A stretch of DNA of 32,000 nucleotides from Acetohalobium arabaticum DSM 5501 (GCF_000144695.1 NC_014378.1:376781-408780), one strand, 5' to 3'. Counted from the stretch's first letter, positions 2,936 to 28,067 are shown. A program made the numbers and translations. The notes: generated by a model from the letters alone, not told the origin.

Positions 2936-3529
2936 ATGATCAAAGTTGATGCTCGAGGTTTAGACTGTCCTCAGCCAGTAATTAAGACAAAAGATGCTAT
3001 AAACAAAGGAGAAAAGGTTGAAACATTGGTCGATAATAAAACAGCCTGTAAAAATTTACAGAAGTTAGGCGATAAGATGAATTGTAATGTTGAAGTGATG
3101 GAAGTGGATGATGATTTTCAATTAACCTTTATACCGGAAGAAGAACTTGTTACCTCCTCGACTACTTCCGAAGAATTAGATGATACCGGTGATAGTGGAG
3201 GGAAGGTTTACTTTATCAGCTCTGATGTAGTAGGAGAAGGAGACCAAGAATTAGGTGAAATCTTAATTAAAGGCTTTACTTATACGTTAACTGAAATAGC
3301 TCCTAAACCTAAAGCAATAGTCTTTATGAATGATGGAGTTAAGTTACCTACATTGAATGATGAAGTAATAGATAATCTGAAAATATTAGAGGAAGCAGGG
3401 ATAGAGATTATATCCTGTGGAACCTGTCTGGATTATTATGGTTTAAAGGATGAATTAGCTGTAGGAGAAGTTTCAAATATGTATACTATTGTTGAAACGT
3501 TAAATAATAATCCAGTAGTAACAGTCTAA
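2936..3529 (+). CDS. yedF: Selenium metabolism protein YedF (TusA/SirA-like N-domain plus DsrE-like C-domain)
   Basis: N-terminal ARGLDCPQPVIKTK (CPxP motif of TusA-like sulfur/selenium carriers), a C-terminal DsrE-like domain ending in CGTCLDYYG, and a position directly upstream of selD. Confidence 0.8.
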   Translation: MIKVDARGLDCPQPVIKTKDAINKGEKVETLVDNKTACKNLQKLGDKMNCNVEVMEVDDDFQLTFIPEEELVTSSTTSEELDDTGDSGGKVYFISSDVVGEGDQELGEILIKGFTYTLTEIAPKPKAIVFMNDGVKLPTLNDEVIDNLKILEEAGIEIISCGTCLDYYGLKDELAVGEVSNMYTIVETLNNNPVVTV

Positions 3530-3536
3530 AATATTA

Positions 3537-3960
3537 TTGATATATTGTTGCAGTTTAGAGTTGATATCTTGCAAACGCTCCAGAAATCAGTCCTAGTCAC
3601 TCAGCAGTAAATAAATCTTAGTGTTATGATTTAAAGATTCCGTTTTATATGTTAACTATTCTCTCTTGTGGGACTGCTTTAAAGTCGCTTTTTGCAAGAT
3701 ATCAACTAAATTATGCAAAATTATCTAAGGAAGCGTTTAAAATCAGATTAATGAAAATTCTATGCTATAAATAGTCAACATTTCTCTGGAGCGACTCTTA
3801 AAACTGACTCGGAACCAGGGATGGTGGAGAGTCAGTTTTGGATAATGAGTGAGACAGGACGTCGAACGAATGGCAAGCGTAAGAGATTTGTTGACTATAA
3901 TCTGCAATATCATGAAAGAAATTATATTAGTTGTAAATGGAAAGTGACACAATATATCAA
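3537..3960 (+). repeat. Non-coding TIR-bounded repeat element, copy S (MITE-like, 424 bp), filling the yedF-selD spacer
   Basis: The termini are TTGATATATTGTTGCAG (3537-3553) and GTGACACAATATATCAA (3944-3960), which match as inverted repeats at 14/17. The element is homologous along its length, in reverse orientation, to 27512-28067. The 45-nt end 3537-3581 is the exact reverse complement of 28023-28067. Confidence 0.7.
3771..3898 (+). ncRNA. 128-nt structured core of the repeat element; candidate structured RNA or ssDNA fold of unknown class
   Basis: Nested helices (ATAGTCAACA/TGTTGACTAT and AAAACTGACTC/GAGTCAGTTTT) are supported by compensatory changes relative to the copy at 27547-27674. 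No reading frame is conserved between the two copies. Confidence 0.4.
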
Positions 3961-4013: not shown

Positions 4014-5048
4014 ATGAATGATAAAAATACATGTCAGCTAACAGCTGGAGGCGGTTGAGCAGCTAAAATAGGTCCTGAGACCTTATCGCAAGTTTTGCGA
4101 TCAGTTCCTACTGTTACTAATGAACGGGAATTAGTTGGATTAAGTACTTCTGATGATGCTTCGGTAATTAAGTTAAATGAAAAGCAAGCTTTGATCCAAT
4201 CACTGGATTTTTTTACTCCAGTAGTCGAGGATCCCTATTTATTTGGTCAGATAGCGGCTGCCAATGCTTTAAGTGATATCTATGCTATGGGCGGTGAGCC
4301 GTTGAGTGCCATGAATATTGTTGGTTTTCCTCCTGAACTCGATACTGAGATTTTAGAAAAGATTCTCCAGGGAGGAGCAGATAAAGTAAAAGAAGCAGGG
4401 GCAATTTTAGCTGGCGGCCATACTATTGAGGATGAAGAGACTAAATATGGTCTTTCTGCCAGTGGCTTAGTGGCTCCAGCAGATATGGTATCAAATGCGG
4501 GAGCTGAGCCGGGAGATAAGCTGGTACTAACTAAACCGCTTGGAATCGGAATTGCTGTGACTGCTATTAACGGAGGTTTAAGTCCTGGAGGTGAAAATAG
4601 TCCGGCTATTCAGGAAATGTTAACTCTGAATAAAGATGCAGCCGAAGTTATGCAGAAAATAGGAGTTAATGCTGCTACTGATGTAACAGGTTTTGGTTTA
4701 TTAGGCCATCTTTGGGAGTTAGTATCGGCCAGTGGAGTACAGGCTGTAGTTAACTTTTCAACCATTCCATTACTGTCTGAAGTAATAGAATGGGCTGAGA
4801 TGGGCTTAGTACCTGGCGGTGCTTATAGTAATCAGGAGTATATTAATGAACATATAGACTTTACAGCTGGATTTGAAGAAGCGAAGCAGAATGTATTATT
4901 TGATCCTCAGACTTCCGGCGGGCTTTTAATTTCGGTTACTGCTGACAAGGCTGATAAATTAGAAATTGCTTTACAGAAGAAAGGAGTAACTTCTGCTATT
5001 ATTGGGCGGATTGAGTCTGGAGAAGCTGCAATTAAGGTGAAAGAATAA
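4014..5048 (+). CDS. selD: Selenide, water dikinase (selenophosphate synthetase), selenocysteine-containing form; TGA at 4056-4058 is read as Sec
   Basis: ATG at 4014 follows the RBS GAAGGGG and is in frame with track ORF 4095-5048 (81 nt upstream). It translates as MNDKNTCQLTAGGG-U-AAKIGPETLSQVL, which aligns with the E. coli SelD motif SHGAGCGCKISPKVL, placing Sec at the catalytic Cys17 position. The rest of the protein is a typical SelD (DFFTPVVEDPYLFGQIAAANALSDIYAMGG, TDVTGFGLLGH, DPQTSGGLL). Confidence 0.9.
4059..4101 (+). promoter_or_regulatory. Candidate SECIS region downstream of the selD UGA
   Basis: There are two hairpins after the UGA. The first is AGGUC-CUGA-GACCU (4070-4083) and can be extended with a bulged U. 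The second is AUCGCAA-GUU-UUGCGAU (4085-4101). Either lies within the usual distance of a bacterial SECIS apical loop from the UGA. Confidence 0.45.
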
Positions 5049-5130
5049 AAGATAATCAACAGCAGGATTCATACGCGCTGTCATTTTAAACCAGAAGAAT
5101 TGCAACGGTAGATCGAAATTAATATCTGTT

Positions 5131-5173
5131 AAACAGCAACTATCAATCTTTGGTAGTTGTTGTTTGTTTTTTT
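5131..5173 (+). terminator. Rho-independent terminator of selD
   Basis: 14-bp stem AAACAGCAACTATC (5131-5144) / GGTAGTTGTTGTTT (5152-5165) with two G:U pairs, followed by GTTTTTTT. Confidence 0.75.
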
Positions 5174-5218
5174 GGAGCTTTTGCAAGATATCAACTCTAC
5201 ACTGCAACATTTTATAAT
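5174..5218 (+). repeat. Solo terminal segment of the repeat family
   Basis: GGAGCTTTTGCAAGATATCAACTCTACACTGCAACA matches the element end at 28023-28058 at 34/36. It is inverted relative to 3546-3581. Confidence 0.6.
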
Positions 5219-6126: not shown

Positions 6127-6318
6127 TATTTTAGGATAAATAGTAAAGAACCCACCCTTATTTATATGGGTGATGAATTTACTACCTATTCTTTGATTCA
6201 ATATCAAAGAATAGGTTATTTTTTGTTTAAATATTAACTATATGTAATTGTATTAAGCCTTGATATTATTGTTATCCAAGGCATTATATGATATACTATA
6301 TATAAAAGGTGATAACAA

Positions 6319-6393: not shown

Positions 6394-7695
6394 TTGAAGT
6401 TAGCTAAATATTTTATTCATAAACCTAATCAAATCCAACAAGTTGTATTAGGTTGTTTAGCCTATGCTAGTGCCAGATTATATAATATCGGCAATTATCA
6501 ACGTAAAAACTGGTCTAAAGATAGTGATGAAGATTATCCTGATTGGTATAAACAAAAAAAGCAATTAAAAGATAACTTTTGGTATAAAAACTTACCCTCC
6601 CAGACAGCACAGGAAACACTTAAAATTTTATCTGATAACTGGGATAGTTTTTATCAAAGTATGGAGGATTATCAAGATAATCCTGATAAATATAACGGCA
6701 ACCCTAATCCACCTAACTATAAATCTAAAGATAGTAAATTTAACTTCCGTTATCTTAATAATGGTTTTAAAATTATTGATGGTAAGTTAAGATTATCTAT
6801 CCCTAAACAATTAAAAAAGTATTTAAAAGAGGAATACTCTATTACTAACAAATTCTTATGGATAAGAGTGCCTAATGAGCTGTTATCCAGTAATAGAGAT
6901 ATCCTTAACTCAACTACTAGAATTGAGTTTAAACCTTTAAGTGATGATACTTATAAGGTAATCTTAACTTATAAAGTAGATACACCAACTATTAAAGAAG
7001 ATAACGGTAATTATTTAAGTATTGATCTAGGCATTAATAATTTAATGACCTGTTACAGCAATCAAAATCAGGAGAGCTTTATTATTGATGGCGGACAGTA
7101 TTTAGCTATTAATCGTTACTTCGACAAACAGATTAAACATTATCAATCTATTTTGAATGGTCAAGGTAAAAAGACTTCTAAACGTATCCAACAATTATAT
7201 AAGAAACGACGCAAGCAGCTGTTTCATTTAATCCATAGTGCTACTAAAAAAGTAGTTAATTACTGTATTGAAAATAATATATCTAGAGTAATCGTTGGTA
7301 ATATAAAAAATATTCGTGATGATGCTGATCTAGGTAAACAGACTAATCAAAAACTACATAAACTACCTTTTGATATTATCTATCACCAACTAGAGTATAA
7401 ACTTCATTTACAAGGGATTACCTTAATTAAGAAGAGTGAGAAATATACCAGCCAATGCAGCCCTTACAGTAAAAAAGTAACTAAGAAATATGGTAATAAA
7501 TCTAATCGTATTAAGCGAGGTTTATATGTAGATGAAGATAACAATCAAGCTTTTAATGCCGATAGTGTGGGTGCATTTAATATCTTACGCAAATATTTAC
7601 AGCAGCGACGTAAAGGTAAAGATATTACTCTGCAGGTTAAAGGCTTATCAAATCCAGTTATATTTAACTGGAATAATCATCAATTTGCAGCTTAA
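6394..7695 (+). CDS. tnpB: TnpB-like protein (IS605 OrfB family, RNA-guided nuclease family), atypical
   Basis: RBS AAGGAGGTGA and a TTG start. It has RuvC-I (LSIDLGINNLMTC), YTSQ.C, and RuvC-III (FNADSVGAFNI). The usual CxxC...CxxC zinc finger is absent. The usual hhhEDL RuvC-II motif reads VIVGNI. Confidence 0.85.
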   Translation: MKLAKYFIHKPNQIQQVVLGCLAYASARLYNIGNYQRKNWSKDSDEDYPDWYKQKKQLKDNFWYKNLPSQTAQETLKILSDNWDSFYQSMEDYQDNPDKYNGNPNPPNYKSKDSKFNFRYLNNGFKIIDGKLRLSIPKQLKKYLKEEYSITNKFLWIRVPNELLSSNRDILNSTTRIEFKPLSDDTYKVILTYKVDTPTIKEDNGNYLSIDLGINNLMTCYSNQNQESFIIDGGQYLAINRYFDKQIKHYQSILNGQGKKTSKRIQQLYKKRRKQLFHLIHSATKKVVNYCIENNISRVIVGNIKNIRDDADLGKQTNQKLHKLPFDIIYHQLEYKLHLQGITLIKKSEKYTSQCSPYSKKVTKKYGNKSNRIKRGLYVDEDNNQAFNADSVGAFNILRKYLQQRRKGKDITLQVKGLSNPVIFNWNNHQFAA

Positions 7696-7855
7696 AAGTA
7701 CCTCTAAGTCCAATATTAACTGGATAGGAGTATTGGCGTTGGACACGCCGATTGGGTAACTTGCTTGATATTACGGGTAACTCCCATAAAAGCAGGCGAC
7801 CATGAAGCTCGGTATTTCAATGCCGAGTAGTTCACAAGCGAATGACAAGCGAAAT
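7640..7855 (+). ncRNA. Candidate omega (right-end) RNA of the TnpB element; approximate extent
   Basis: By analogy with TnpB systems, the guide RNA overlaps the tnpB 3' end and the right end. Hairpins GGCGT-TGGAC-ACGCC and CTCGGTA-TTTCAA-TGCCGAG are present, followed by TAGTTCAC. The putative guide would start near 7836. There is no direct evidence of transcription. Confidence 0.35.
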
Positions 7856-8102
7856 ATATGTTGATACTATTCTTTGCCTAATAAAAATTACTAATATATT
7901 ATCGTTTTATATAAGTATTTACTTATATAAAAAACAAATTACAGACTGGATAAGCTTTTACATTGTTTAAATAATTAATTACTTATACATGCTATAATTA
8001 ATTACAATATAAGGAAAAGAAGGGATTAAGGTTCTACTGTGGAAATATTATAATACAAGCTATAAAAAAATACTATAAAAAATAAATTTAAATATTAAAT
8101 AT

Positions 8103-8174
8103 GGAGGATTGATCGGAAAGATCACATAGGCTCTAACCCTATGCAGCCGGGTGTAACTCCCGGATCCTCCGCCA
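8103..8174 (+). tRNA. pylT: tRNA-Pyl (anticodon CUA, amber suppressor), CCA encoded
   Basis: The cloverleaf folds as follows:
- acceptor GGAGGAT (8103-8109) / ATCCTCC (8164-8170);
- one nt between the acceptor and D stems;
- D stem GATC/GATC with a 5-nt loop;
- 6-bp anticodon stem CATAGG/CCTATG;
- loop CUCUAAC with CUA at 8133-8135;
- 3-nt variable loop;
- T loop UGUAACU without T-psi-C;
- discriminator G.
It is close to the Methanosarcina and Desulfitobacterium tRNA-Pyl sequences recalled from the literature. Confidence 0.92.
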
Positions 8175-8189
8175 CTAATAATAATATGA

Positions 8190-8215
8190 TTAAATTCATA
8201 ATATTATGAATTTAA
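8190..8215. promoter_or_regulatory. 26-bp perfect palindrome between pylT and mttB; candidate operator or pylT 3' hairpin
   Basis: TTAAATTCATAAT|ATTATGAATTTAA is perfectly self-complementary. No strong T run follows it. Confidence 0.35.
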
Positions 8216-8361
8216 AAGTTTTAATTATATTTTTGCTGGAAAAGACTATAAAATAAAAACTATAGAGGAGGGATAATAAAATAAGATAGCTTTTAAATGG
8301 GATTAACAGAAAGAGTTTAAAGCGTAATGAACTAAAATTTTTAACAGAAAGGGTGAGATAT

Positions 8362-9822
8362 ATGACCATCAGAAATTCACGATCTTATTATCCCAACAAA
8401 ACTGGTTTTAGTGTTGATATGTTTACTGATGAAGAGTTAGAAGAGATTCATTTAGCTACACTAGAAATGTTATGGGATAATGGAATGCATGTTACAAATG
8501 AAGAAGCACTGGATATCTTTGCTGATGCTGGAGCTAAGGTTAATCGTAGCGAAGGGAAAGTTAGAATTCCTCCTTATATGGTAGAGGATGCTATTAAGTC
8601 CGCTCCACCTCAAATTTTAATGGCTGGACGTGACCCAGAAAATGATGTGGTAATTGGAGGTAGTCGAGTCAACTTTACGACCTTTGGAGCTGGAGTTAAG
8701 ATAGAAGACTTAGAAACAGGAGGATTAAGAGATACTCTTAAACAGGATGTAGCAGACACTGCTTTAGTAGCAGATTATCTTGATCAGATTGATATTTATT
8801 CTCATGCAGTAACAGGGGGGGACTCTCCTGATGCAAATATTGATCTGCATGATGCTGAGGCCTTCTTGAATAATACTACTAAGCATTGTCATCATATTGA
8901 TTTAACTTGTGGTGAAAATGCGAAAAAGTATTTTGAAATGGGTGCCGCTATTATGGGCGGTATGGATGAATTAAGAGAGAGACCTATTATTTCTGGTTTG
9001 GTCTGTCCACAGAGTCCTCTTGAATTGCATGGAGATGCTGCTCAGATTATTATTGAACATGCACGGGCTGGTATTCCGGTTAATGTATTATCCATGGCTA
9101 TGTCGGGAGCTACTTGTCCAGTATCTGTAGCAGGGACTTTGGTAGACCATAATGCCGAGGTGCTAACAGGAGTTATCCTAACTCAGCTAGTCAATAAAGG
9201 AGCACCAGTAATTTACGGTAGTTCTACCACGACTTTTGATTTACAGCATTCTACTGCGCCTGTAGGTGCTCCAGAACTAGGGATGTGTAATGCAGGAGTA
9301 GCTAAGTTGGCTCGTTATTACAACTTACCTAGTTATACTGCAGGTGGCTAGGCGGACAGCAAGTTATGTGACGTACAATCCGGATATGAAAAGACTATGA
9401 CTTATATGCTGCCAGCTATGGCAGGTGCTAACGTGCTTTACGGCTCAGGAATGATAGAGTTAGGAGTAACCTTCAGCTATACTCAGCTTATGATCGATAA
9501 TGAGATAGCTAGAATGGTAAGAAGAGTAATCAATGGTGTAGAAGTTAACGATGAAACTCTTGCTACTGATATAATGAAGGAGGTTGGCTGTGGAGGAAAC
9601 TTCCTTACTCAGCAGCATACATTAGACCTTATGGACCAGGAACAGTCTAGATCTGATCTCTTCGATAGAAAGATGAGAGAAGGTTGGGAGAATGACGGTT
9701 CTCAAGGTGCTGCTGAAAAAGCTACTGAAAGAGCAAAAACAATTCTTAATGACCATACTCCTGAGCCGTTAGATCAAGAGGTTCAAGATAAATTAAGTGA
9801 AATCGTAGAAAGTGTTAAGTAA
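8362..9822 (+). CDS. mttB: Trimethylamine:corrinoid methyltransferase, with the in-frame TAG (9349-9351) decoded as pyrrolysine
   Basis: Track ORFs 8353-9351 and 9397-9822 share one frame (1044 nt offset) and are separated only by the TAG. The joined protein is about 486-489 aa with ...YNLPSYTAGG-O-ADSKLCDVQSGYEK..., which matches the position of Pyl in MttB (about residue 334). ATG 8362 is preferred over GTG 8353 because of the RBS AAAGGGTGAG. Confidence 0.9.
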
Positions 9823-9982
9823 GACCGCGTTAGCAGATAGATAAACTTATATACATGTTAATTGAGGGAGATGCAGAGTCATTTCCCTTGATTAACATCC
9901 CTATATTTAAAATTTAAGTAAGTTATTCTATCCGGAAAGAAAGTTTGATTGGTTACCAATTATATTAAGGAGGTTTATAAAG

Positions 9983-10615
9983 ATGAGTCAATTTGACGAT
10001 ATTGCAGAAGCTGTAATTGATGGAGATGAGGAAAGAGTAGAAGAATTAACACAGAATCTGGTTGATGAAGGTGAAGAGCCTAGTGAGATTATTAAGGAAG
10101 GATTAGTTGCCGGTATGGATGTAGTGGGGGATAGATTTAAAGCAGAAGAGATGTTTGTTCCGCAGGTATTGATTGCGGCAGAAGCTATGGCGAAAGGAAT
10201 GGATATAGTAAAGCCTCTTTTAGCTGATGATGATACTAGTTCTGAAGGGCTTGTACTAATGGCTACAGTAGAGGATGACTTACATGATATAGGTAAGAAC
10301 TTAGCTTCTATGTTACTGGAAGGTTCTGGGTTTAATGTAATAGATTTAGGAACCGATATTCCGCCAGAAGAATTTGTAGAAGGAGTAAAAGAGCATGAAC
10401 CTGATATTGTAGGAATGTCTTCTTTATTAACTACTACAATGCCTAATATGGAGAGTACAATTGAAGCATTAGAGGAAGCCGGAATCAGAGATGAAGTTAA
10501 AATAATGGTAGGAGGCGCTCCAGTAAGTCAGGAGTTTGCTGATGAAATAGGAGCAGACGCATATGCTCCTGATGGAAGTACTGCTTCTGATTTGGCTAAA
10601 GAAATTATTGATTAA
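9983..10615 (+). CDS. mttC: Trimethylamine corrinoid protein (B12-binding)
   Basis: It has an N-terminal helical B12-binding-2 domain and a Rossmann-like B12 domain with the DxHxxG motif (EDDLHDIGKN), SSLLTTT and MVGGAP. It lies directly downstream of mttB. Confidence 0.85.
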   Translation: MSQFDDIAEAVIDGDEERVEELTQNLVDEGEEPSEIIKEGLVAGMDVVGDRFKAEEMFVPQVLIAAEAMAKGMDIVKPLLADDDTSSEGLVLMATVEDDLHDIGKNLASMLLEGSGFNVIDLGTDIPPEEFVEGVKEHEPDIVGMSSLLTTTMPNMESTIEALEEAGIRDEVKIMVGGAPVSQEFADEIGADAYAPDGSTASDLAKEIID

Positions 10616-10618
10616 TAG

Positions 10619-10648
10619 ATATAGAGGAGGAAATTTCCTCCTCTATAT
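10619..10648 (+). terminator. Perfect 30-nt palindrome (hairpin), possibly an attenuator or terminator between mttC and pylSn
   Basis: ATATAGAGGAGGAAA|TTTCCTCCTCTATAT. Only a weak T tract follows it, so terminator function is uncertain. Confidence 0.45.
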
Positions 10649-10678
10649 TTAATTAAGGCTAATGAGGGGGCGGAGAAG

Positions 10679-10963
10679 ATGGCTCAGTATACTTTTAGAA
10701 AAAAGCAGGATTTATTTTCTTTATTAAAAGAGATGAAACTGTGGCCTTCTCGTTCGGGACTTTTACATGGGATTAAATCGATAGATACTTTAGGCAATTA
10801 TGCACGCCTTACTTTATATTGTGGTCAAGAGATTACAGTAAAGAATTCTAAAAACAGTCGGGCAGCTCGCTGGCTGCGTAATACAATGATGATTGAACCC
10901 TGTACAGAATGTGAAGTGCCTGATTGGAAGATAGAGAAATATTCTAATACTACTTTTAAATAA
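10679..10963 (+). CDS. pylSn: Pyrrolysyl-tRNA synthetase, N-terminal tRNA-binding domain protein
   Basis: About 94 aa. LWPSRSGLLHGIK...NSKNSRAARWLRN...CTECEVPD matches the PylS N-domain pattern (LWMSRTGTLHKIK...NSRSCRTARAFRH...CKRCRVSD in Methanosarcina). A separate pylSn gene is typical of bacteria. Confidence 0.85.
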   Translation: MAQYTFRKKQDLFSLLKEMKLWPSRSGLLHGIKSIDTLGNYARLTLYCGQEITVKNSKNSRAARWLRNTMMIEPCTECEVPDWKIEKYSNTTFK

Positions 10964-10989
10964 ATTCAAGAGGGATGGAGGCCTGGATA

Positions 10990-11829
10990 ATGAAATTTAC
11001 TCAAGCTCAACAGCAGAGGATAATTGAACTGGATGCTGAAGGTAAATATAAAGGATATATTAAGGATAAGGAATTTGATTCTTCTAAAGAACGAGAGGAT
11101 GACTTTCAGAAAATAGAGGATGATTTAGTTAATAAGAATAAAAAAAGACTAGAAGAGTTACAAGGCCGTCATCAGCAGCCGGTATTAAGGAGAATGGAGT
11201 TTCGGTTAGTTGAATTACTCAAAGAGTCTGGATTTATGGAAGTAGTTACTCCTATAAAGTTAGCCAAAGGCCATTTAGAGAAGATGGGAATTGATGAAGA
11301 ACATTCCCTCTGGAAACAGGTATACTGGCTTGAGGAAGATAACTACTGTCTGCGTCCGATGTTGGCTCCTAATTTATATTATTTGCTGGGTTATTTTGAA
11401 AATTCATTATCTAAGCCTATTAAAATATTTGAAGTAGGTCCCTGTTTTCGCAGAGAATCCCGAGGAAGTAAACATCTTTCCGAGTTTACAATGATGAATC
11501 TAGTAGAATTAGGACCTAAGGGAGATCCCACTGAGAGATTGAAATCATTAATTGCAGAATTAATGGATTATCTAGAACTTGAATATGAGTTAGAGGAAGA
11601 GGAATCGGTGGTTTATGGTAAAACTATCGATGTAGTAGTAAACGGTATAGAAGTTGGTTCTGGGGCTGTAGGTCCCCATTTGTTGGATGAAGCCTGGAAT
11701 ATCAGTGATTCCTGGGTAGGAGTTGGTTTCGGTTTAGAGAGATTGATAATCTGTAAAGAAGAATTTGAAAGCATCAAACGGGTTGGCCGGAGTCTTATCT
11801 ATCAGGATGGAGTAAGGTTGAATATTTAA
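10990..11829 (+). CDS. pylSc: Pyrrolysyl-tRNA synthetase, catalytic (class II) domain protein
   Basis: LRPMLAPNLYYLLGY....PIKIFEVGPCFRRESRGSKHLSEFTMMNLVELG is the PylS catalytic core signature. ATG 10990 is preferred (RBS AGAGGGATGGAGG). The alternative in-frame ATG is at 10975. Confidence 0.9.
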   Translation: MKFTQAQQQRIIELDAEGKYKGYIKDKEFDSSKEREDDFQKIEDDLVNKNKKRLEELQGRHQQPVLRRMEFRLVELLKESGFMEVVTPIKLAKGHLEKMGIDEEHSLWKQVYWLEEDNYCLRPMLAPNLYYLLGYFENSLSKPIKIFEVGPCFRRESRGSKHLSEFTMMNLVELGPKGDPTERLKSLIAELMDYLELEYELEEEESVVYGKTIDVVVNGIEVGSGAVGPHLLDEAWNISDSWVGVGFGLERLIICKEEFESIKRVGRSLIYQDGVRLNI

Positions 11830-11846
11830 AAATAAGGGTGGGAATA

Positions 11847-12953
11847 ATGAAAGAAAATAATTTAGATTTACAGGTGATACTGGATAAAGCTAAAAGCGGT
11901 AGGGAACTTAAATTTGAAGAAATATATAAAATTCTAACTTTAAAAGATAAAGAGTCCCTAGAGCAGGTATTTAAAGCAGCTAGAGAGATTCGAAGAAATT
12001 ATTTTGGAAATAAAATATTTTTATATGGGTTTGTCTACTTTTCTACTTATTGTAGAAATGAGTGTACCTTCTGTTATTATCGAAAGTCAAATAATAAGAG
12101 CCCTCGCTATAGAAAAACTCCGGATGAAATTCTTCAGATTGCAGAATCTTTGATGAATTCCGGAGTTCATTTAATTGATTTAACTATGGGAGAAGATCCA
12201 GCTATATATACTGAAAATAATTTTGGAAGTTTAAAAGAAATAGCCAGCCAAATTAAAGATCAAACCAATCTGCCAGTGATGGTATCTCCAGGAGTTTTAC
12301 CGGAAGATGAGGTATTAGAGTTGGAAGATTGTGGAGCTGACTGGTATGCCTGTTATCAGGAAACTCATAATAGAGATCTGTTTACTGAATTAAGAGTAAA
12401 CCAAAGTTATGATCGGAGAATGGAAACAAAGATGTTGGCGAAGAATAATGGATTATTAATTGAAGATGGAATTCTGCTAGGAGTAGGAGAGGAGATCGAA
12501 GACCGTGTTAATTCAATTTTGACGATGAAGGAGTTAGGGGTACATCAGGGCAGAGTAATGAGTTTTGTAGCTCAGGAAGGTACTCCTATGGCTGATTCTA
12601 ATACTCCACCTCGAAGAGAAGAACTGTTGGTAATTGCTGCTTTAAGGTTAGTTTTACAGGATAGATTAATTCCTGCTTCTTTAGATGTAGATGGAATTGA
12701 GGGTTTAGAGGATAGATTGAATGCTGGAGCCAATGTTGTAACATCTTTAATTCCTCCTAGTTCTGGTTTAGCCGGTGTTTCTAATTCAACGCTGGATATT
12801 GATGAAGGCCATCGAACCGTAAATGGAGTACAGAAGGTGATTGAAGAGTTAGATTTGAAAATTGCTGCTCCAGAGTTGTATAAAGAATGGGTTGAGACTA
12901 AAAAGATGAATTTGAATCATTTAGACAGAGATGTGATTGTCTGCAGAGGATAG
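11847..12953 (+). CDS. pylB: Methylornithine synthase (radical SAM lysine mutase)
   Basis: Radical SAM CxxxCxxC motif (CRNECTFCYY), BioB-like architecture, and a position after pylS. ATG 11847 is preferred (RBS AAGGGTGGG). The alternative start is GTG 11838. TAG stop at 12951-12953. Confidence 0.9.
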   Translation: MKENNLDLQVILDKAKSGRELKFEEIYKILTLKDKESLEQVFKAAREIRRNYFGNKIFLYGFVYFSTYCRNECTFCYYRKSNNKSPRYRKTPDEILQIAESLMNSGVHLIDLTMGEDPAIYTENNFGSLKEIASQIKDQTNLPVMVSPGVLPEDEVLELEDCGADWYACYQETHNRDLFTELRVNQSYDRRMETKMLAKNNGLLIEDGILLGVGEEIEDRVNSILTMKELGVHQGRVMSFVAQEGTPMADSNTPPRREELLVIAALRLVLQDRLIPASLDVDGIEGLEDRLNAGANVVTSLIPPSSGLAGVSNSTLDIDEGHRTVNGVQKVIEELDLKIAAPELYKEWVETKKMNLNHLDRDVIVCRG

Positions 12954-12969
12954 TATGGAGGAGATAGGA

Positions 12970-14934
12970 ATGAATATTATTTTGGGCATAGATGCTGGAG
13001 GTACTTATACGGATTCTGTTCTCTATGATAGAGGAAATCAAGAATTAATTGATAAGAATAAGGCACTTACTACTTATTATAATTTAACTGAAGGAATTAA
13101 TAATACTATTACTGGATTAAAAGAAGAATGGTTTGATACAGTAGAGTTAGTAACTTTATCTACAACTCTGGCTACTAATGCTATTGTAGAGGGGAGGGGT
13201 GGAAGAGTAGGACTACTTCTGTTGGGATATGACCAGCAGCTTATGGAGCAGTTTACATTGGATGAAGAGATTCCTGGTAAAAAAAGAGAGATTATTAAGG
13301 GCAGATTTAACACTAGAGGAGAAAAAATTGAAAGTTTAGATGAAGAGGAAATAGAAAAGATAATCAAAAAGTGGCAGGGAAGTATAGATGCAGTGGCCAT
13401 TTCTGGATATATGAGTCCCCGCAATCCAGCCCATGAATTAAAGGCTAAAGGGATACTGGCTGAAATGACAGACCTGCCAGTAGTCTGCGGCCATGAATTA
13501 ACTAATAAATTAAATTCTATTCAACGGGCAACTACAGTAGCCTTAAATGCCAGCTTGATTCCTATGATCAAAGAATTGAATCAAAAAGTAAAAGAGGTTC
13601 TGCAGGTTAATGGAATTGAAGCACCAGTGATGATGGTGAAAGGAGACGGTTCATTAGTAAGCAGCCAGGCAGTTATAGATAAGCCTATAGAGACTGTATT
13701 ATCGGGACCAGCAGCCAGTACAATTGGTGCTAAGCATCTGGGGGAGGTAAATGAAGGAGTAATTGTAGATATTGGTGGTACTACTACTGATATTTCTGTA
13801 ATTAAGGATGGTTATCCTGATTTAAATTCCGATGGAGCAGTAGTAGGCGGCTGGTTAAGTAGTATAGAAGCAATTAAATTTAAAACTATCGGCTTAGGTG
13901 GAGACAGCAGAATCTATTTTAATCAGGATGGAGAATTAAAGATTGGTCCTAAAAGGGTAATTCCTTATTCGGCAGCTGCTGTAGAGCATAGGGAAGTTTT
14001 AACTGATTTACATAGAATGAGCGAAGAAAAAGTAAGCGGAGCAAGAAGAGAATTTTTGACTTTAAATAGAGCTGGGGTAGATATCGAATTCAATAAGCAG
14101 GAAGAGCAGATAATAAATGTATTAGAAACTGGTCCTAAATCAATAGCTCAGATAGTAGAAAGCATTGGTCTGGTTAGCCATAGAATTTTAGATTTAGAGC
14201 GGCTAGAAAGACTTGGAGTGATTAAAAGAATTGGTCTGACTCCAACGGATGTCTTACATGTGTTAGGGGAGTATACTATCTGGGAGGAGGAAGCAGCAGA
14301 ATTAGGACTTGAATTACTGATGAAGAGAATGAAAAGTGATAAGTTGACTTTAGCAGAGAAGTTAAAAGAAAGAGTAATCAATAAAGAAGCTAAAGAGATT
14401 ATTGCTTATTTGATCAGCCAGGATTATGAAGATTATAATCAGAACAGATGTGGATTATGTGAAAGATTAATAGAGTCCTGTTTAACTGAAGAAACCAAGA
14501 ATTTTTTATTGGATTTTAAGTCCCAGTTACCAATTGTAGCCTTGGGAGCTCCAGCCGAAGCTTATATGTCTAATTTGGATGATTATTTGGAGACAGATAT
14601 TATAGTGCCTGAAAATTATGAAGTAGCCAATGCTGTTGGTACTGCTGTAGGTAGAATCCTGATTAAACAAGAAGTGGAGATTAAGGTGAGAGGAAATGAT
14701 TATATTGTTCATGCGCCAGGCAGAAAGAAAGAATTTATTGATTTAGAGGAAGCAGTTGAGTGGGCTAAACAGAAAGGAAAGAAAGCAGCTGTTAAAGAAG
14801 CTAAGACTGCTGGAGCTAAAAGTATTGAAGTAGAAATAGAGGTAGAAAGAAGAAAAGCAGATATTAGTGCTCAAGGATCTAAAATGTTATTAGGTATTGG
14901 AGTAAAGATTATTGTTACCGGATTACCATTTTAG
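12970..14934 (+). CDS. Hydantoinase/oxoprolinase-family (HyuA-like, ASKHA ATPase) protein embedded in the pyl operon
   Basis: It has the N-terminal ILGIDAGGTYTDSVLYD...STTLATNAIVEGRG (hydantoinase A N-domain pattern) and GPAASTIGAKHLG....IVDIGGTTTDISVIKDG...IGLGGDS (hydantoinase_A pattern). ATG 12970 is preferred (RBS GGAGGAG). The alternatives are TTG 12937 and ATG 12955, both in the same frame as 12970; only the 12937 start overlaps pylB. TAG stop. Confidence 0.8.
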   Translation: MNIILGIDAGGTYTDSVLYDRGNQELIDKNKALTTYYNLTEGINNTITGLKEEWFDTVELVTLSTTLATNAIVEGRGGRVGLLLLGYDQQLMEQFTLDEEIPGKKREIIKGRFNTRGEKIESLDEEEIEKIIKKWQGSIDAVAISGYMSPRNPAHELKAKGILAEMTDLPVVCGHELTNKLNSIQRATTVALNASLIPMIKELNQKVKEVLQVNGIEAPVMMVKGDGSLVSSQAVIDKPIETVLSGPAASTIGAKHLGEVNEGVIVDIGGTTTDISVIKDGYPDLNSDGAVVGGWLSSIEAIKFKTIGLGGDSRIYFNQDGELKIGPKRVIPYSAAAVEHREVLTDLHRMSEEKVSGARREFLTLNRAGVDIEFNKQEEQIINVLETGPKSIAQIVESIGLVSHRILDLERLERLGVIKRIGLTPTDVLHVLGEYTIWEEEAAELGLELLMKRMKSDKLTLAEKLKERVINKEAKEIIAYLISQDYEDYNQNRCGLCERLIESCLTEETKNFLLDFKSQLPIVALGAPAEAYMSNLDDYLETDIIVPENYEVANAVGTAVGRILIKQEVEIKVRGNDYIVHAPGRKKEFIDLEEAVEWAKQKGKKAAVKEAKTAGAKSIEVEIEVERRKADISAQGSKMLLGIGVKIIVTGLPF

Positions 14935-14972
14935 ATTAAATATTGATCTAAAGTATATAGGGGGCGAATTAA

Positions 14973-16145
14973 GTGCGAAGAATTGCTATAATAGGTGGGG
15001 GATTACAGGGAATTGAAGTTACTTATCTGGCACAGAAGGCCGGATATAAAGTGCTGTTAATCGATAAAAGAAGGGATGTTCCGGCCTTTAATTTGGCAGA
15101 TGAGACTATAATCTGTGATATAATGAAAGAAAAGGAGAAGTTTAAGGAGAGTTTAGATGGTGTAGATTTAATTCTGCCTACTACCGAGAATAATGCAGCT
15201 TTACAGACATTAAAGAGTATGGATTCTAAGATAGACATTCCTATTGTATTTGACTGGGCTGCCTATCAGATTACTAATTCTAAAGAGAAATCAAAGAAAT
15301 TATTCAGTGAATATGATATTCCTCAGGCTGATTTATGGCCTAAAGCAGACTTTCCTTTGATCATTAAACCTAGCTCTGCTAGCGGTAGTCAAGAGGTGCA
15401 TAGGGCAGAAAATAAGCAGGAATTGGATGAAGTATTAACTAATCTGAAAGCAGCAGAAAGTGATCTAATTATCGAAGAATATCTTCCAGGACCTTCCTAT
15501 TCTATCGAGGTAATTGGCTATCAGGATCAGATATTGCCTTTGGTAACTACTTATTTAGATTTTGATGTTGATTATGACTGTAGACAGGTGATTTCCACTG
15601 ATAATTTAGAATTCATTGATACAGAACTAAGGGAGAGATTAAATGAATTAAGCAGTAAGATTGCTAAAAAGATCGGGCTCAATGGGATTATGGATCTGGA
15701 AGTGATCAGAGGCGAGAATGATATAAAGGTATTAGAAATCGATGCCCGCTTTCCCAGCCAGACTCCGATTACAGTCTTCTGGGCTACTGGTTTAAATATG
15801 GTGGAACTGTTGGTTAAGCTCTATTTAGAGGAAGGAATAGAGCCTGAATCCAAAGATTCATTCTCGGAGAATAAATCAGTCATTTATGAACATATTAAGA
15901 TGCAGAATGAAGTTTTAGAGGTCTGTGGAGAACATATTATTTCTCGAAGTACAGATTTAAGGCTGGAGAGGGACTTCTTTGGAGCTGTTGAAGCGATAAC
16001 CAATTATGGTTTTAGAAAGCAAGAATGGGTAGCTACTTTAATTTTTACTGCCGATTCTTTGGTAGAAGCATTTAAACAGAGAGATCGAACTTTAAATAAA
16101 ATTAGTGAAATAAATTCGTTATCTAAAACTAAAGTAAAGAGGTGA
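14973..16145 (+). CDS. pylC: 3-methylornithine--L-lysine ligase (ATP-grasp)
   Basis: N-terminal IAIIGGGLQGIEVTYLAQKAGYKVLLIDK, ATP-grasp body (LIIKPSSASGSQ..., LEIDARFPSQTP), and a position between pylB and pylD. Confidence 0.88.
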   Translation: MRRIAIIGGGLQGIEVTYLAQKAGYKVLLIDKRRDVPAFNLADETIICDIMKEKEKFKESLDGVDLILPTTENNAALQTLKSMDSKIDIPIVFDWAAYQITNSKEKSKKLFSEYDIPQADLWPKADFPLIIKPSSASGSQEVHRAENKQELDEVLTNLKAAESDLIIEEYLPGPSYSIEVIGYQDQILPLVTTYLDFDVDYDCRQVISTDNLEFIDTELRERLNELSSKIAKKIGLNGIMDLEVIRGENDIKVLEIDARFPSQTPITVFWATGLNMVELLVKLYLEEGIEPESKDSFSENKSVIYEHIKMQNEVLEVCGEHIISRSTDLRLERDFFGAVEAITNYGFRKQEWVATLIFTADSLVEAFKQRDRTLNKISEINSLSKTKVKR

Positions 16146-16149
16146 TAAG

Positions 16150-16956
16150 ATGACTAGATTATTTACTGATCAGATAAGCCATATTCCAGAGACAATAGAC
16201 GAATATAACCAGGAATTGAAGGATAAGACCGGGTGTGGGCTAGTAGGCTTGGCCAATCATGCTTTAGGAACTGAGTATGAAACTGCTTTTTTGGCTCAAA
16301 AGAGAGCTGCTGTTGTCCCTGTTACCGTAGGTGAAGGGATTATTCAGGGATTCAGTAAATCAGTAGCAGCTATTTTAGAATATATGGGGTTTGAGATTTT
16401 GGTTACCAATAGTTCAGATGTAAAAGGAATTAAAGAAGCATATCAAAAGAAAGCAGATATTCTTTTGATGGCCGATGATGATGAATTTATAGCTTTGAAT
16501 CTGGAAGAGAATAAATATGTTGATAATAACTGGGCTACAGCAAGGGCTTATGTGAATGCTTTGGAATTAATGGTAGGCGGATTGAAAGATAGAACAGTAG
16601 TTGTACAGGGATTAGGCCCAATAGGGAGAGAGGCTGTTAGAGCCTTAATAGAGAAGGAAGCCCGGATAAAGGTCTATGATGTTGATGAGCAGAAGATGAT
16701 AAAATTAACAGAGGAGGTTGAATCTGTAGAGGCTGTAAAGAATCCGGAACAAGAATTAAAACATAATAAATTAATTCTAGAAGCAACTCCTGTTGATAAT
16801 ACTATACAAGAGGATTATATCGATCAAAAAACATATATTTCTGCTCCTGGAGTTCCCTTAGGTGTCTGCAAAACTGCTATAAGTAGTATTGAAGATAGAT
16901 TAATTCATGATCCGTTACAGTTGGGAGTAAGCTTGATGGCGGCTGGGGTTTTATAG
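16150..16956 (+). CDS. pylD: Pyrrolysine synthase (3-methylornithyl-N6-L-lysine dehydrogenase)
   Basis: VPVTVGEGIIQGFS, ILLMADDDEF, Rossmann VVVQGLGPIGREA, LEATP, APGVPLG and DPLQLG match the PylD pattern recalled from Methanosarcina PylD. TAG stop at 16954-16956. Confidence 0.85.
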   Translation: MTRLFTDQISHIPETIDEYNQELKDKTGCGLVGLANHALGTEYETAFLAQKRAAVVPVTVGEGIIQGFSKSVAAILEYMGFEILVTNSSDVKGIKEAYQKKADILLMADDDEFIALNLEENKYVDNNWATARAYVNALELMVGGLKDRTVVVQGLGPIGREAVRALIEKEARIKVYDVDEQKMIKLTEEVESVEAVKNPEQELKHNKLILEATPVDNTIQEDYIDQKTYISAPGVPLGVCKTAISSIEDRLIHDPLQLGVSLMAAGVL

Positions 16957-18008: not shown

Positions 18009-18097
18009 GCCGGAGTGGCGGAACTGGCAGACGCGTAGCGTTGAGGGCGCTATGGACAGTCTTGTCCGTGTGGGTTCAAATCCCACCTCCGGCACCA
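18009..18097 (+). tRNA. tRNA-Leu (anticodon GAG), class II with a long variable arm, CCA encoded
   Basis: Acceptor GCCGGAG/CTCCGGC; anticodon stem TAGCG/CGCTA with loop TTGAGGG (GAG at 18043-18045); long variable arm TGGACAGTCTTGTCCGT; T arm GTGGGTTCAAATCCCAC. Confidence 0.9.
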
Positions 18098-18439: not shown

Positions 18440-19858
18440 ATGAAAGTTAAAAACAAGTCATTTTCTGGAGGTTATACGTTTAATCTTGAGGGTAAGCCTC
18501 AGGATAGAGTTGTTGAATTAGAAACTCCTTCGAAAGTTGTTGTTCCTTTAAAGCAGGGGTTTGGCAGAGAAGTAGAACCCAATGTTGAGCCGGGTGAAGA
18601 AGTGAAAGCTGGTCAGATTATTGGTAGAGATGATGAATCTTTGTCTACTCCTATACAGGCAACGGTTAGCGGAACTGTAACAGAGATTACGGATTTACCT
18701 TCAAATAGGAGAGCAGTTGTCATTGAGTCAGATGGGACAGATGATTGGCAGCAATTAGAAGATCATTCATCTAATTGGAATAATCTATCAGCTGAAGAAA
18801 TTGAAGAATTACTTTATACTTCCGGAGTTACTTCCTTGGATAACCAGGGAATTCCGACTAGATATAAGAGTTCATCAATTTCTAAAGATGAAGTAGAGCA
18901 TATAATTATTGAAGGTACTGAGTCTAATCCTTATAACTTATCATTATCAGCTCTTTTAGAAGAAAATAAGTTATCACAGTTTGTTGATGGATTACAGATA
19001 CTCCACAAAGTCTTTCCACAGGCTAAAGTACATGTAACTATCAATGAAAATCGACAGCAATTAATTAAAGAATTAAGTGATTCTGCTGGAAATTATGATT
19101 GGATTCAGCTGTATAGTTCAGCTCCTAAGTATCCTCAAGGTAAGGACGAAATATTAGTTCCTACAATTTTAGGTGACGATTATAAAGTAAGAGCTTCTGT
19201 AGCAAGTTATGGTGTAATTGTCTTAAAAGTCCAGACTATTCTGCATATTTATGATGCTGTTGTAGAAGGAAAACCGTTGATAGAGCGGATGGTATCGCTG
19301 GCTGGAGAGGGCTGGCAGGAAAATATTCACCTTAAAGTTCGAATTGGTACTTCTATTGAAGCTATTATGAAAAATTACTCTGGTAGTGATAACCAGAGGC
19401 TTATTATTGGTAATTTATTAACAGATAAATCTATTGCAGATTACGAGATACCGGTTGACCGCACTTTTGATAATTTAAATGCGATCCCGGAACAGGAAGT
19501 AGGCGAGCCGTTTGCCTTTGCGCGTCCAGGAGCTCAAAAATATTCTTATTCAAATTCATTCTTATCTGCCTTACTTTCTGAGGTCTCTAGTAAATGTGAT
19601 ACTAATGTTCATGGAGAAGAAAGGGCTTGTATCTTCTGTGGTTACTGTGAAGATGCTTGTCCAGTTGATATAATTCCACATCTTGTTGAACGGTATACAG
19701 CTCAGAGCAGTGTCGATGAAGAGCTTATTAGATATGGTATTTTTGACTGTATAGAATGTAACTTGTGTACATTTGTTTGTCCATCTAAAAGACCTGTAGG
19801 TAAGCATATCAAGCAGGGAAAACAGTTCTTGCTCAATAAAGGATATGTAGTGAAGTAA
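18440..19858 (+). CDS. nqrA: Na+-translocating NADH:quinone oxidoreductase subunit A homolog with a C-terminal 2x[4Fe-4S] ferredoxin-type motif (RnfC-like feature)
   Basis: It has an N-terminal NqrA/RnfC barrel-sandwich region (AGQIIGRDDESLSTPIQATVSGTVTEI) and is the first gene of an ABCDEF-ordered operon. Two complete motifs are present: CIFCGYCEDACP and CIECNLCTFVCP. Confidence 0.75.
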   Translation: MKVKNKSFSGGYTFNLEGKPQDRVVELETPSKVVVPLKQGFGREVEPNVEPGEEVKAGQIIGRDDESLSTPIQATVSGTVTEITDLPSNRRAVVIESDGTDDWQQLEDHSSNWNNLSAEEIEELLYTSGVTSLDNQGIPTRYKSSSISKDEVEHIIIEGTESNPYNLSLSALLEENKLSQFVDGLQILHKVFPQAKVHVTINENRQQLIKELSDSAGNYDWIQLYSSAPKYPQGKDEILVPTILGDDYKVRASVASYGVIVLKVQTILHIYDAVVEGKPLIERMVSLAGEGWQENIHLKVRIGTSIEAIMKNYSGSDNQRLIIGNLLTDKSIADYEIPVDRTFDNLNAIPEQEVGEPFAFARPGAQKYSYSNSFLSALLSEVSSKCDTNVHGEERACIFCGYCEDACPVDIIPHLVERYTAQSSVDEELIRYGIFDCIECNLCTFVCPSKRPVGKHIKQGKQFLLNKGYVVK

Positions 19859-22953: not shown

Positions 22954-24045
22954 ATGAATATTCAACCAATCTATATATTAGCTTCAATTTTCTTTGGGGT
23001 TGCTTTCGTGTTGGCGATTGCTGATTTCTTATTGACCAGTAATGAGCAGCAGGTAATTAACATTAATGATGAAGAGTATATTCCGGCTGGAGATGGAACA
23101 TTGTTGGAAGTTTTAGGTGAAAATGGCATCTTCATTCCTGCAGGTTGTGGTGGAAAAGCAAGCTGCGGTCAATGTAAGGTTACAGTAAAAGAAGGCGGCG
23201 GTGATATACTACCTACAGAAGAACCTTTCCTCGACGAAGAAGAAAGAGAAGAAGGAGTCAGGCTTGCCTGTCAGGTAAAAGTCAATGAAGATATGAAACT
23301 TGAGCTTGATGAATCATTACTGGATATAGAAGAATATACTGCTCGAGTAGCTGAGGTGAGGAGTGTAACTCCTACAGTTAAACATGTTAGATTAGAAATG
23401 ATAGAACCAACAGATATTGAGTTTGAAGCTGGGCAGTATGCACAGATTATGATACCTGGTTTTGAAGAATATCGGGCTTACTCTATAGCTTCACCGCCGA
23501 GTATGGCCAGAGAAGAGAATGCTTTACAGTTTACAATTAAATTGGTACCCGGCGGTCTCTGTACTAGCTGGGTTCACTTTGCTATGGAAGAAGGTGATAT
23601 CGTTAAGTTCACTGGCCCCTTCGGTCACTTCTATCTCGATGAAGAATCTGATAGAGAGATTATTCTGATCGGTGGAGGAGCCGGTATGGCACCTATGAGA
23701 GGAATTCTTGAGCGGCTAGATGAATTGGGGATGCCCCGGCCGACAAGATATTACTTTGGTGCCAGAAACTCAGATGAGCTTTACTATGGAGACAGATTCG
23801 CAGAACTTGAAGAGAAGTATGATAACTTTGAGTATATACCTGCACTGTCTGACCCTACTCCGGAAGACAAAAAGAATTGGGATGGTCCTACTGGATTTGT
23901 TACTGATGTACTGGATGAGAGAGAAGGATCACTGGAGAATGCAGAATCCTATCTCTGTGGACCACCGCCTATGCTTGATGCAGCTGAACGCATCTTAGTT
24001 GATCATGGAATGCCGGAAGAAAAGGTAATGTTTGATAAATTCTAA
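22954..24045 (+). CDS. nqrF: NADH:quinone oxidoreductase subunit F (2Fe-2S ferredoxin, FAD and NADH binding)
   Basis: N-terminal TM helix, plant-type ferredoxin Cys pattern (CGGKASCGQCKV...LACQ), FAD motif RAYSIAS and NAD-binding IGGGAGMAP. Its presence identifies the operon as Nqr rather than Rnf. Confidence 0.85.
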   Translation: MNIQPIYILASIFFGVAFVLAIADFLLTSNEQQVININDEEYIPAGDGTLLEVLGENGIFIPAGCGGKASCGQCKVTVKEGGGDILPTEEPFLDEEEREEGVRLACQVKVNEDMKLELDESLLDIEEYTARVAEVRSVTPTVKHVRLEMIEPTDIEFEAGQYAQIMIPGFEEYRAYSIASPPSMAREENALQFTIKLVPGGLCTSWVHFAMEEGDIVKFTGPFGHFYLDEESDREIILIGGGAGMAPMRGILERLDELGMPRPTRYYFGARNSDELYYGDRFAELEEKYDNFEYIPALSDPTPEDKKNWDGPTGFVTDVLDEREGSLENAESYLCGPPPMLDAAERILVDHGMPEEKVMFDKF

Positions 24046-27511: not shown

Positions 27512-28067
27512 TTGATATATTGTTGCACTTTCAAGATATTGCAGTGATAGTCAATATGTATCCGCCGCTTGTCGTTCGCTCAACATCCTGTTTCGCTCAC
27601 TCTCAAAAACTGGCCCTCCATCGTCCATGATTCCGGGCCAGTTTTAAGAGTCGCTCGGGACACATATTGACTATTGATAATAGATATATCACTATGGTTA
27701 TCATTAATTAGAGTTGCTATAGACGCATATTGACCATTTGCAGTATGATATTGTCATGGTATTACATTGCAATCACAGCCTGGGCTGTTTAGGAGAAAAA
27801 AGATCTGGAACAGAGAAACTTCCCAGGCTATAGTTACAGCACAAAAATTTCATTAATATGGTTTCACGTCACATCAGATTATTTTGCATAATTTTATTGT
27901 TGATATCTTGCAACAAGCGACTTTAAAGCAGCCCCATAAGAGAAAATAATTAACATATAAAGTAGGGATTCAAACTGTAGCTATAAGATTAATTTATTGC
28001 TAATTAATCAGGGCTGATTTTCGGAGCGTTTGCAAGATATCAACTCTAAACTGCAACAATATATCAA
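27512..28067 (-). repeat. Non-coding TIR-bounded repeat element, copy P (556 bp), in the divergent proS / ybgC-like spacer
   Basis: The termini are TTGATATATTGTTGCAC (27512-27528) and CTGCAACAATATATCAA (28051-28067), inverted repeats matching at 16/17. It is collinear with copy S when read on the minus strand and carries about 130 nt of extra internal sequence. Confidence 0.7.
27547..27674 (-). ncRNA. 128-nt structured core of the repeat element, copy P
   Basis: Read on the minus strand it has outer helix ATAGTCAATATGT/ACATATTGACTAT and inner helix AAAACTGGCCC/GGGCCAGTTTT. The architecture is the same as 3771-3898, with compensatory substitutions. Confidence 0.4.

Follow-up and report, generated by a model that had tools for sequence, protein, structure and literature searches.

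A covarying three-way-junction fold carried by a TTGAT-targeting mobile repeat of Acetohalobium arabaticum and its possible kinship with the guide RNAs of TnpB

A 128-nt core present in two inverted copies in Acetohalobium arabaticum DSM 5501 forms, in both copies, the same three-way junction, and very probably represents a fold that is selected as RNA and carried by a non-autonomous element targeting TTGAT. Both copies lie in the window, the stretch of 32,000 nt analyzed here (GCF_000144695.1 NC_014378.1:376781-408780). The helices of the core covary, the core belongs to a repeat that is inserted at TTGAT and linked to no gene family, and a local motif of it recurs in the sequence 3' of a tnpB gene. 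The fuller reading, in which the core of such an IS200/IS605-type element is a scaffold of the omega-RNA type, resembling the guide RNAs of TnpB, stands in even balance in our assessment; within it, we infer the binding of the core by TnpB and the location of the guide. The core is a transposon-borne RNA that is probably omega-RNA-like; it does not constitute a new cellular RNA class, nor is it a dedicated regulator of selD or proS. A preliminary description of this DNA had proposed a novel structured RNA or single-stranded DNA fold. The structured fold holds and is absent from Rfam, whereas its standing as an independent RNA does not hold, the core being a module of a multi-copy mobile element.

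Table 1 Features of the core, the mobile repeat and the tnpB locus in the window.
Feature	Position	Strand	Remarks
Core, copy S	3771-3898	+	covariance model R1 score 159 bits
Core, copy P	27547-27674	-	same architecture as S; covariance model R1 score 156 bits
P1 closing helix, core S	3771-3787 with 3882-3898	+	
G-C clamp, core S	3791-3792 with 3877-3878	+	
P2 hairpin, core S	3800-3810 with 3829-3839	+	mini-stem 3814-3816/3823-3825
P3 hairpin, core S	3845-3855 with 3861-3871	+	two tandem G.A loops
Whole element S	3537-3960	+	424 nt; yedF-selD spacer
Whole element P	27512-28067	-	556 nt; upstream of proS; part order of S plus a 158-nt insert
Left end, element S	3537, 3561		TTGAT (probable target) and two direct TTGATATNTTG sites
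Inner inverted TTGATATNTTG site, element S	3695		
Terminal inverted TTGATATNTTG site, element S	3950-3960		
Tail of S, core to element end	3899-3960	+	62 nt; AATCTGCAATATCATGAAAG...ACACAATATATCAA
Tail of P, short form	27512-27546	-	without 26 nt found in S and M1
Insert specific to P	27676-27833	-	158 nt
Left-end-like remnant, solo, inverted	5169-5215	-	89% to 3540-3586
tnpB-family gene (candidate partner or relative of the partner)	6394-7695	+	Pfam OrfB_IS605; NCBIfam guided_TnpB 179 bits
tnpB 3' flank, presumed omega RNA scaffold	7696-7870	+	

The extent of the core reported in the preliminary description is confirmed by the sequence of both copies and by a repeat finder, which detects an inverted pair of 133 nt with 77% complementarity (3766-3898 / 27547-27679). 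The two cores are 76% identical over 132 aligned columns. When folded separately, both form the same junction, composed of a long closing helix (P1), a long hairpin whose loop contains a mini-stem (P2) and a short hairpin (P3). The folding energies of S and P are -49.8 and -58.8 kcal/mol, corresponding to z = -6.8 and -8.1 against dinucleotide shuffles, and none of 200 such shuffles matches the energy of the native core. P3 is a continuous helix with two stacked tandem G.A/A.G loops, in which the G and A residues are invariant and the flanking pairs covary. In addition, the 18-mer GAGCGACTCTTAAAACTG is invariant and occurs in the window only in the two cores (expected 0.03). A search of both cores against Rfam 15, at the gathering threshold and at E<=10, returns no family match; the preliminary description had found no match to riboswitch, T-box, SRP, 6S or self-cleaving ribozyme consensus sequences and had called for this search. 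The sole Rfam overlap with a core is the 3' end of a match to the DdR16 snoRNA (3722-3803), a chance match of 15.6 bits against a gathering threshold of 70 (E = 8.4). The core is missing from Rfam; its fold is solid and merits a family entry.

The pairing of the core is maintained across all four copies known at the nucleotide level, which are S, P and two metagenome copies (M1 and M2). The common structure, comprising 38 pairs, was laid on a gap-free alignment of the cores and the pairs were then counted. Between S and P, 8 of the 38 pairs are changed on both sides and 97.4% of the cells are paired. Inclusion of M1 brings the number of changed pairs to 12 of 38 (96.5% of the cells paired), and further inclusion of M2 to 16 of 38 (97.0%); none of the three sets contains a pair changed on one side only. 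The preliminary description had considered that additional copies might break the helices at random, and M1 and M2 instead leave the count of one-sided changes at 0. Sliding the partner by 1-3 columns lowers the pairing to 29-42% in the S and P set, and to about 30-45% across the two-, three- and four-copy sets. Among 500 shuffles, none reaches the observed number of both-side changes for three copies, and the same is true for four copies, although these controls take no account of the kinship among four copies from one narrow lineage. All five compensatory changes that had been listed between S and P are present, and three further pairs are compensated (16-117, C:G to G:U; 19-114, U:A to C:G; 82-98, U:A to C:G). 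RNAalifold, provided with the sequences only and with no structure, recovers the same helices together with extensions of P2 and P3 and one more compensated pair. The initial base-pair observation is confirmed as real, and was understated. Moreover, a covariance model trained on S, P and M1 retrieves M2, which was left out of the model, with 83 bits (E = 3e-19); the covariance-model search envisaged in the preliminary description, performed with model R1, detects this independent copy.

The changes are concentrated in one helix when S is compared with M1. Outside the P2 stem the two copies differ at 5 of 110 columns, whereas within the stem they differ at 12 of 22 positions, which constitute six compensated pairs (hypergeometric P = 8e-8). 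Either block exchange between copies or fast evolution under a pairing constraint accounts for the P2 stem. The conservation of the core is not coding, because every frame is stopped in at least one copy. The same conclusion had been drawn earlier from open reading frames lying in different frames in the two copies; that argument holds only in part, since within part of the core the short antisense ORFs lie in a common frame. Both G:U pairs and tandem G.A motifs are characteristic of RNA, and the G:U pair in P1 of copy P together with the tandem G.A motifs of the core favors an RNA of the sense strand. We infer that the core functions as RNA rather than as single-stranded DNA.

The core is embedded in a larger, non-coding repeat, whose bounds in S and P are drawn from the positions of the 11-mer TTGATATNTTG. 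This 11-mer has exactly nine sites in the window, four in each element (two direct at the left, one inverted inside and one inverted at the right extremity) and one in the remnant. The repeats begin directly after TTGAT and terminate with ...ATATCAA(T), and no target duplication is found at either window copy. When TTGAT is counted within the element, TTGATATATTG and CAATATATCAA form an 11-nt inverted pair. Upstream of the core, the S and P loci are 81-92% identical. The insert specific to P contains a palindromic module, AGCCTGGG..CCCAGGCT (27829-27777), and a 31-nt fragment from the 5' part of the core (27708-27738). This fragment matches the 5' core on the minus strand with an nhmmer E value of 0.013 and is located about 35 nt upstream of core P, and an arrangement of fragment before core is also readable in the translation of Acear_0294. 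The module at 27777-27829 on the minus strand, reading AGCCTGGGAAGTTTC ... CCCAGGCT, is a second palindromic module. A longer version of it, with the same inverted ends, occupies the place of the core in an Acetohalobium-like metagenome contig (~75-330), and the module may be another nested miniature element.

In the window, core S is located between a TusA/DsrE (YedF-like) gene (2936-3529) and selD, 117 nt before the selD ATG (~4016), while core P lies 159 nt upstream of the ATG of proS (27387-25678, minus strand). selD itself (4016-5048) contains an in-frame TGA (~4054-4056, motif GGG-U-AAK), and its product is therefore a selenocysteine-containing selenophosphate synthetase; the mechanical ORF call begins at 4095. 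The terminator-like hairpin of selD (5130-5166) is followed at once by the remnant, a degenerate and inverted left end, so that selD is bracketed by two left-end sequences.

Comparison with relatives reveals the empty site of element S. In Sporohalobacter salinus, which has the same order of neighboring genes, the yedF-selD spacer is only about 50 nt long and lacks the element; it reads ...ATTATTAATTGAT-AGTC..., and the TTGAT of the empty site (AATTGAT) is kept. The spacer of Selenihalanaerobacter, about 70 nt long, also lacks the element. Since the site is empty in both relatives and retains TTGAT in Sporohalobacter, the element has been inserted between yedF and selD. The Acetohalobium-like metagenome contig, with a SelD of 90% identity, carries at the orthologous place the inner left part of the element and its right end, with a different insert where the core would be. 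The persistence of the ends in this relative implies that the core is dispensable for it.

Further copies were found by protein-database searches with translations of the core, in which a spurious antisense ORF of S led to M1 and M2 on a 500-nt ENA metagenome contig (ERZ10759792). The two cores of this contig stand head to head, 60 nt apart (205-336 and 397-500), and may belong to an element of two right ends, the contig being too short to tell. An exhaustive protein search with the S translation yields three more read-through ORFs, namely Acear_0294 of A. arabaticum and two UniParc entries, P0122 and P0123, known here as translations. The A. arabaticum genome thus carries at least three copies of the repeat, and its short-read assemblies from two independent runs break off precisely at the 3' boundary of core P. 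In every copy with known downstream sequence a common tail follows the core, and similarity ends right after ...ATATCAAT; the sequence directly upstream of the core differs among copies. A convergent gene ends, with its terminator-like hairpin, about 150 nt downstream of M1, and the ~200 nt of contig that follow M1 contain no co-oriented gene. The P0122 translation passes without interruption from the repeat into a TnpB missing its ~23 N-terminal residues. A further candidate, P0125, was rejected, because it proved to be a 219-nt satellite, unrelated to the repeat, on a contig that looks eukaryotic.

All recovered copies come from A. arabaticum or close relatives. Scanning genome contigs for the 18-mer gives 8 matches in unrelated phyla, none of which is scored by the covariance model, and these matches are therefore due to chance. 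Two patterns (the 18-mer plus CAGTTTT, and a relaxed three-block pattern) have 0 matches in JGI metagenome contigs, and the 18-mer and the relaxed pattern likewise have 0 matches in IMG/VR viral sequences. The A-box 15-mer has 78 matches in the viral scan, which is about the chance rate, and blastn of the whole elements against plasmids and phages finds no match.

The insertion of both elements 3' of a fixed pentanucleotide without duplication is the behavior of IS200/IS605 and its derived PATEs. PATEs are multi-copy elements devoid of coding capacity that a Y1 TnpA mobilizes in trans, and their left and right ends are unlike, with subterminal hairpins in place of terminal inverted repeats. 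The elements described here are multi-copy and non-coding, but the 11-nt inverted repeat at their ends is not typical of IS200/IS605, and no hairpins of that family were confidently recognized. IS607 is characterized by GG termini and target, repeated motifs near the ends and a serine TnpA (PMC6188088). Subterminal repeated motifs are present in the elements as well, but membership in IS607 was rejected, as the termini are TTGAT.../...ATCAA(T) instead of GG and no serine recombinase is encoded nearby. Readings of the TTGCAAGATATCAAC boxes as promoters or as sigma-54 sites were rejected by eye on their spacing. A nested insertion, in which a core-bearing IS would have entered after the second TTGAT of an older 85-nt palindromic element with AATCTGCAATATC as the guide, is a self-consistent scheme.

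The connection with TnpB arises from the 3' flank of the tnpB gene. The 13-mer CGAAYGRCAAGCG has three sites in the window, one in each core and one at 7839-7851, 144 nt past the tnpB stop (expected 0.00). Around this third site, the segment 7796-7864 (GCGAC..hairpin..CGAATGACAAGCG..TGTTGA) is the only instance of the core 3' motif in the window outside the cores. The flank continues as GCGACCATGAA-(hairpin)-...CGAATGACAAGCG-AAATATA-TGTTGATACTAT, and the cores read GCGACTCTTAA-(P2)-...CGAAYGRCAAGCG-N9-TRTTGACTAT. A composite pattern, GCGAC..hairpin..CGAAYGRCAAGCG..TRTTGA.CTAT, which was written after the match had been seen, is found at those three sites only. The motif on which the link is built comprises 13-15 nt plus short flanking matches. 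A sequence-only profile of the core (nhmmer) ranks the tnpB flank as the top sense-strand match outside the elements (E = 0.43), with the 3' part of the profile aligned. Covariance model R1 gives no match on the flank, and the motif is absent from the nearest tnpB relative fetched (50% identity, on a plasmid). A P1-like pseudoknot in the flank was rejected, because its best duplex is no better than those of shuffles. None of the omega-type families in Rfam matches the core. The beginning of the flank (7696-7828) weakly matches sot0042, the Rfam family of sense transcripts overlapping IS1341-type tnpB genes (RF02656; 25.8 bits, E = 8e-5, gathering threshold 88), whereas the core has no sot0042 match, its 3' motif being common to the stretch into which this flank continues.

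Omega RNAs are encoded 3' of tnpB in the same orientation, or in tnpB-less derivatives sharing its ends; TnpB binds and processes them, and they direct TAM-dependent cleavage of DNA. Their scaffold extends to the right boundary of the transposon, where a guide drawn from the flanking DNA, and hence different in each copy, follows. With respect to TTGAT and the left end, the core has the orientation expected for such an RNA, and a sequence preceding the window tnpB (TTGATATTATTGTT at 6262) may weakly resemble the left end. Immediately 3' of GTTGACTAT, conservation extends across S, P, M1, P0122 and P0123, and because the following 35-62 nt are shared among copies, no guide derived from flanking DNA lies right after GTTGACTAT. 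The copies diverge only after ...ATATCAAT, so that a variable guide would be present only if the scaffold included the tail. No copy of the core follows a tnpB gene among the copies found, and no tnpA is present in the window.

The TnpB encoded in the window departs from the canonical enzyme. Gly occupies the column of the canonical RuvC-II Glu (..VIVGNIKNIR..), and the zinc-ribbon region is devoid of CxxC pairs, while the RuvC-I and RuvC-III Asp residues are retained. The same Gly and the same loss of CxxC are observed in the 50%-identical plasmid relative and in a viral relative. Rather than having lost activity, these proteins may form a clade in which the catalytic Glu has moved to another position. 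TldR proteins, which are nuclease-dead forms of TnpB, are defined by fewer than two of the RuvC D-E-D residues (10.1101/2023.11.30.569447), and a TldR reading of the window TnpB was rejected under this published rule, as both Asp residues are kept and only the canonical Glu column is Gly. Downstream of tnpB, the window contains a pyrrolysine cluster (8103-16956) with tRNA-Pyl (8103-8174), an mttB gene with an in-frame TAG and an 84-bit PYLIS_3 match (9349-9448), a corrinoid protein gene, and PylS-like, radical-SAM (PylB-like) and PylD_N-containing genes. It is followed by a tRNA with a long variable arm (18009-18097), assigned by ARAGORN as tRNA-Leu(GAG), just upstream of an RnfC-like gene (18440-19858) that is the first of an Rnf-type block ending at 24045. 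The pyrrolysine cluster, tnpB and the Rnf block are all absent from the syntenic region of Sporohalobacter salinus.

The functional scaffold of the ISDra2 omega RNA is 116 nt long, the last bases before its guide pair with a 5' segment, and the TAM is TTGAT (PMC10097598). The 128-nt core is of similar length, its 5' and 3' ends also pair, and, as in the ISDra2 type, it occupies the right part of an element 3' of TTGAT, on the strand of the target motif. The local motif common to the core and the resident tnpB 3' flank is a further point of similarity. In contrast to omega RNAs, the core has no significant model-level similarity to any of them, possesses a long plain closing helix (17-19 bp) in place of the short TnpB pseudoknot, and ends 35-62 conserved nucleotides before the element end, with no variable guide directly 3'. 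PATEs that encode no protein but produce omega RNAs used in trans have been described (PMC10055086).

We propose that the repeat is an IS200/IS605-like PATE or MITE, confined to the Acetohalobium lineage with several copies in each genome, which inserts just 3' of TTGAT without target duplication. Its parts would follow the order left end, optional inserts, core, 35-62-nt tail and right end. Sense transcription, supplied at S by read-through from yedF and started at P by a promoter-like site within the insert, would allow the closing helix of 17-19 bp to form around a junction with two hairpins. In what we regard as the likeliest reading, the core would be a descendant or relative of the omega RNA, the right-end RNA scaffold of a TnpB-carrying IS, and a TnpB encoded at another locus would employ its RNA in trans. 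The RNA-protein complex would then cut the emptied TTGAT site, and recombination would restore the element. In a bolder version, which we consider quite improbable, the core is an orphan trans-acting scaffold whose specificity is provided by a guide lying 3' of it in conserved element-internal sequence (AAUCUGCAAUAUCAUG...) or by the rapidly evolving, invariably paired P2 stem, and which programs an unusual TnpB to the TTGAT-flanked sites of the repeat family. The TnpB of that version is one in which the zinc-ribbon cysteines are lost and the RuvC-II Glu is off its canonical position, and the system would represent RNA-guided control or homing among non-autonomous elements instead of classical donor-site cleavage.

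The covariation and the repeat nature apply equally to a structured RNA borne by a MITE and unrelated to TnpB, serving as a stability or processing element (an RNase III target) or as a small RNA produced at every site of insertion. ERIC, Correia and bcr1 repeats, in which one long imperfect hairpin with RNA-level structure spans the whole element, have been proposed to act as such stability or processing elements. The present repeat resembles them as a short intergenic non-coding sequence with inverted ends, an RNA fold and compensatory changes, but differs from them in carrying a discrete three-way-junction module with conserved loops within a larger modular element. The closing helix would be a good substrate for a double-strand RNase, the element at S lies in the transcribed yedF-selD space with no terminator-like site between, and the omega-RNA link is statistically weak, all of which suit this explanation. 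The conserved junction strands and loops and the two tandem G.A motifs nevertheless point to a specific tertiary fold or a protein partner instead of a plain hairpin, and the tnpB 3' flank is the only other place in 32 kb where the core 3' motif occurs; on balance we consider an RNA of this kind, unconnected with TnpB, rather unlikely. A fold of single-stranded DNA for transposition, its helices being kept for recognition of folded ends by a Y1 transposase, is consistent with the TTGAT target without duplication, as in IS200/IS605, whose elements move in single-stranded form, and compensatory changes alone cannot separate DNA from RNA. The recognition hairpins of TnpA are, however, short (~20 nt) and subterminal (PMC7290912, PMC10055086), whereas the core forms a three-way junction of 128 nt at a distance of 35-62 nt from the end. 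The Acetohalobium-like metagenome element moreover keeps both ends without the core. Together with the RNA-typical G:U pair and tandem G.A motifs, this makes selection of the helices for DNA improbable.

A cis-regulatory leader common to selD and proS, either a riboswitch or a protein-binding element, would explain why both window cores are upstream of and co-oriented with a gene, at 117 nt from selD and 159 nt from proS, and the fold is of riboswitch size. The orthologous selD leaders in three relatives, however, lack the core, M1 lacks a co-oriented gene within ~200 nt, and the P0122 copy is fused to a truncated tnpB. Furthermore, the best promoter-like sites for selD and proS are located downstream of the elements, the core is not followed by a terminator or a platform for sequestering the RBS, and the flanking repeat is duplicated along with it. 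This function is very improbable. The absence from the spacers of relatives, the multiple copies and the varied neighbors identify the core as a mobile-element module and not a riboswitch. That the fold is a chance palindrome or a recent duplication under no structural selection is hardly credible: the copies are only four, from one narrow lineage, and the shuffles ignore their relatedness, but 16 pairs are changed on both sides against 0 on one side, the P2 differences between S and M1 are all compensated, and pairing with slid partners drops to ~30-45%.

The finding that the core is carried by a mobile repeat bears on the annotation of these genomes. The 'hypothetical protein' Acear_0294 is a translation of the RNA element, and the two further UniParc entries probably are as well. 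The case also cautions against designating such gene-upstream repeats as riboswitches. The narrow range of the element, comprising Acetohalobium and close relatives, limits its wider importance, and its biology probably belongs to that of selfish elements. If the omega-RNA-type reading is true, the known range of guide-RNA scaffolds would be extended to one with a long closing helix in place of the pseudoknot, a G.A hairpin and an internal position, and the repeat would provide a clean natural case of a protein-less element that relies on a TnpB encoded elsewhere.
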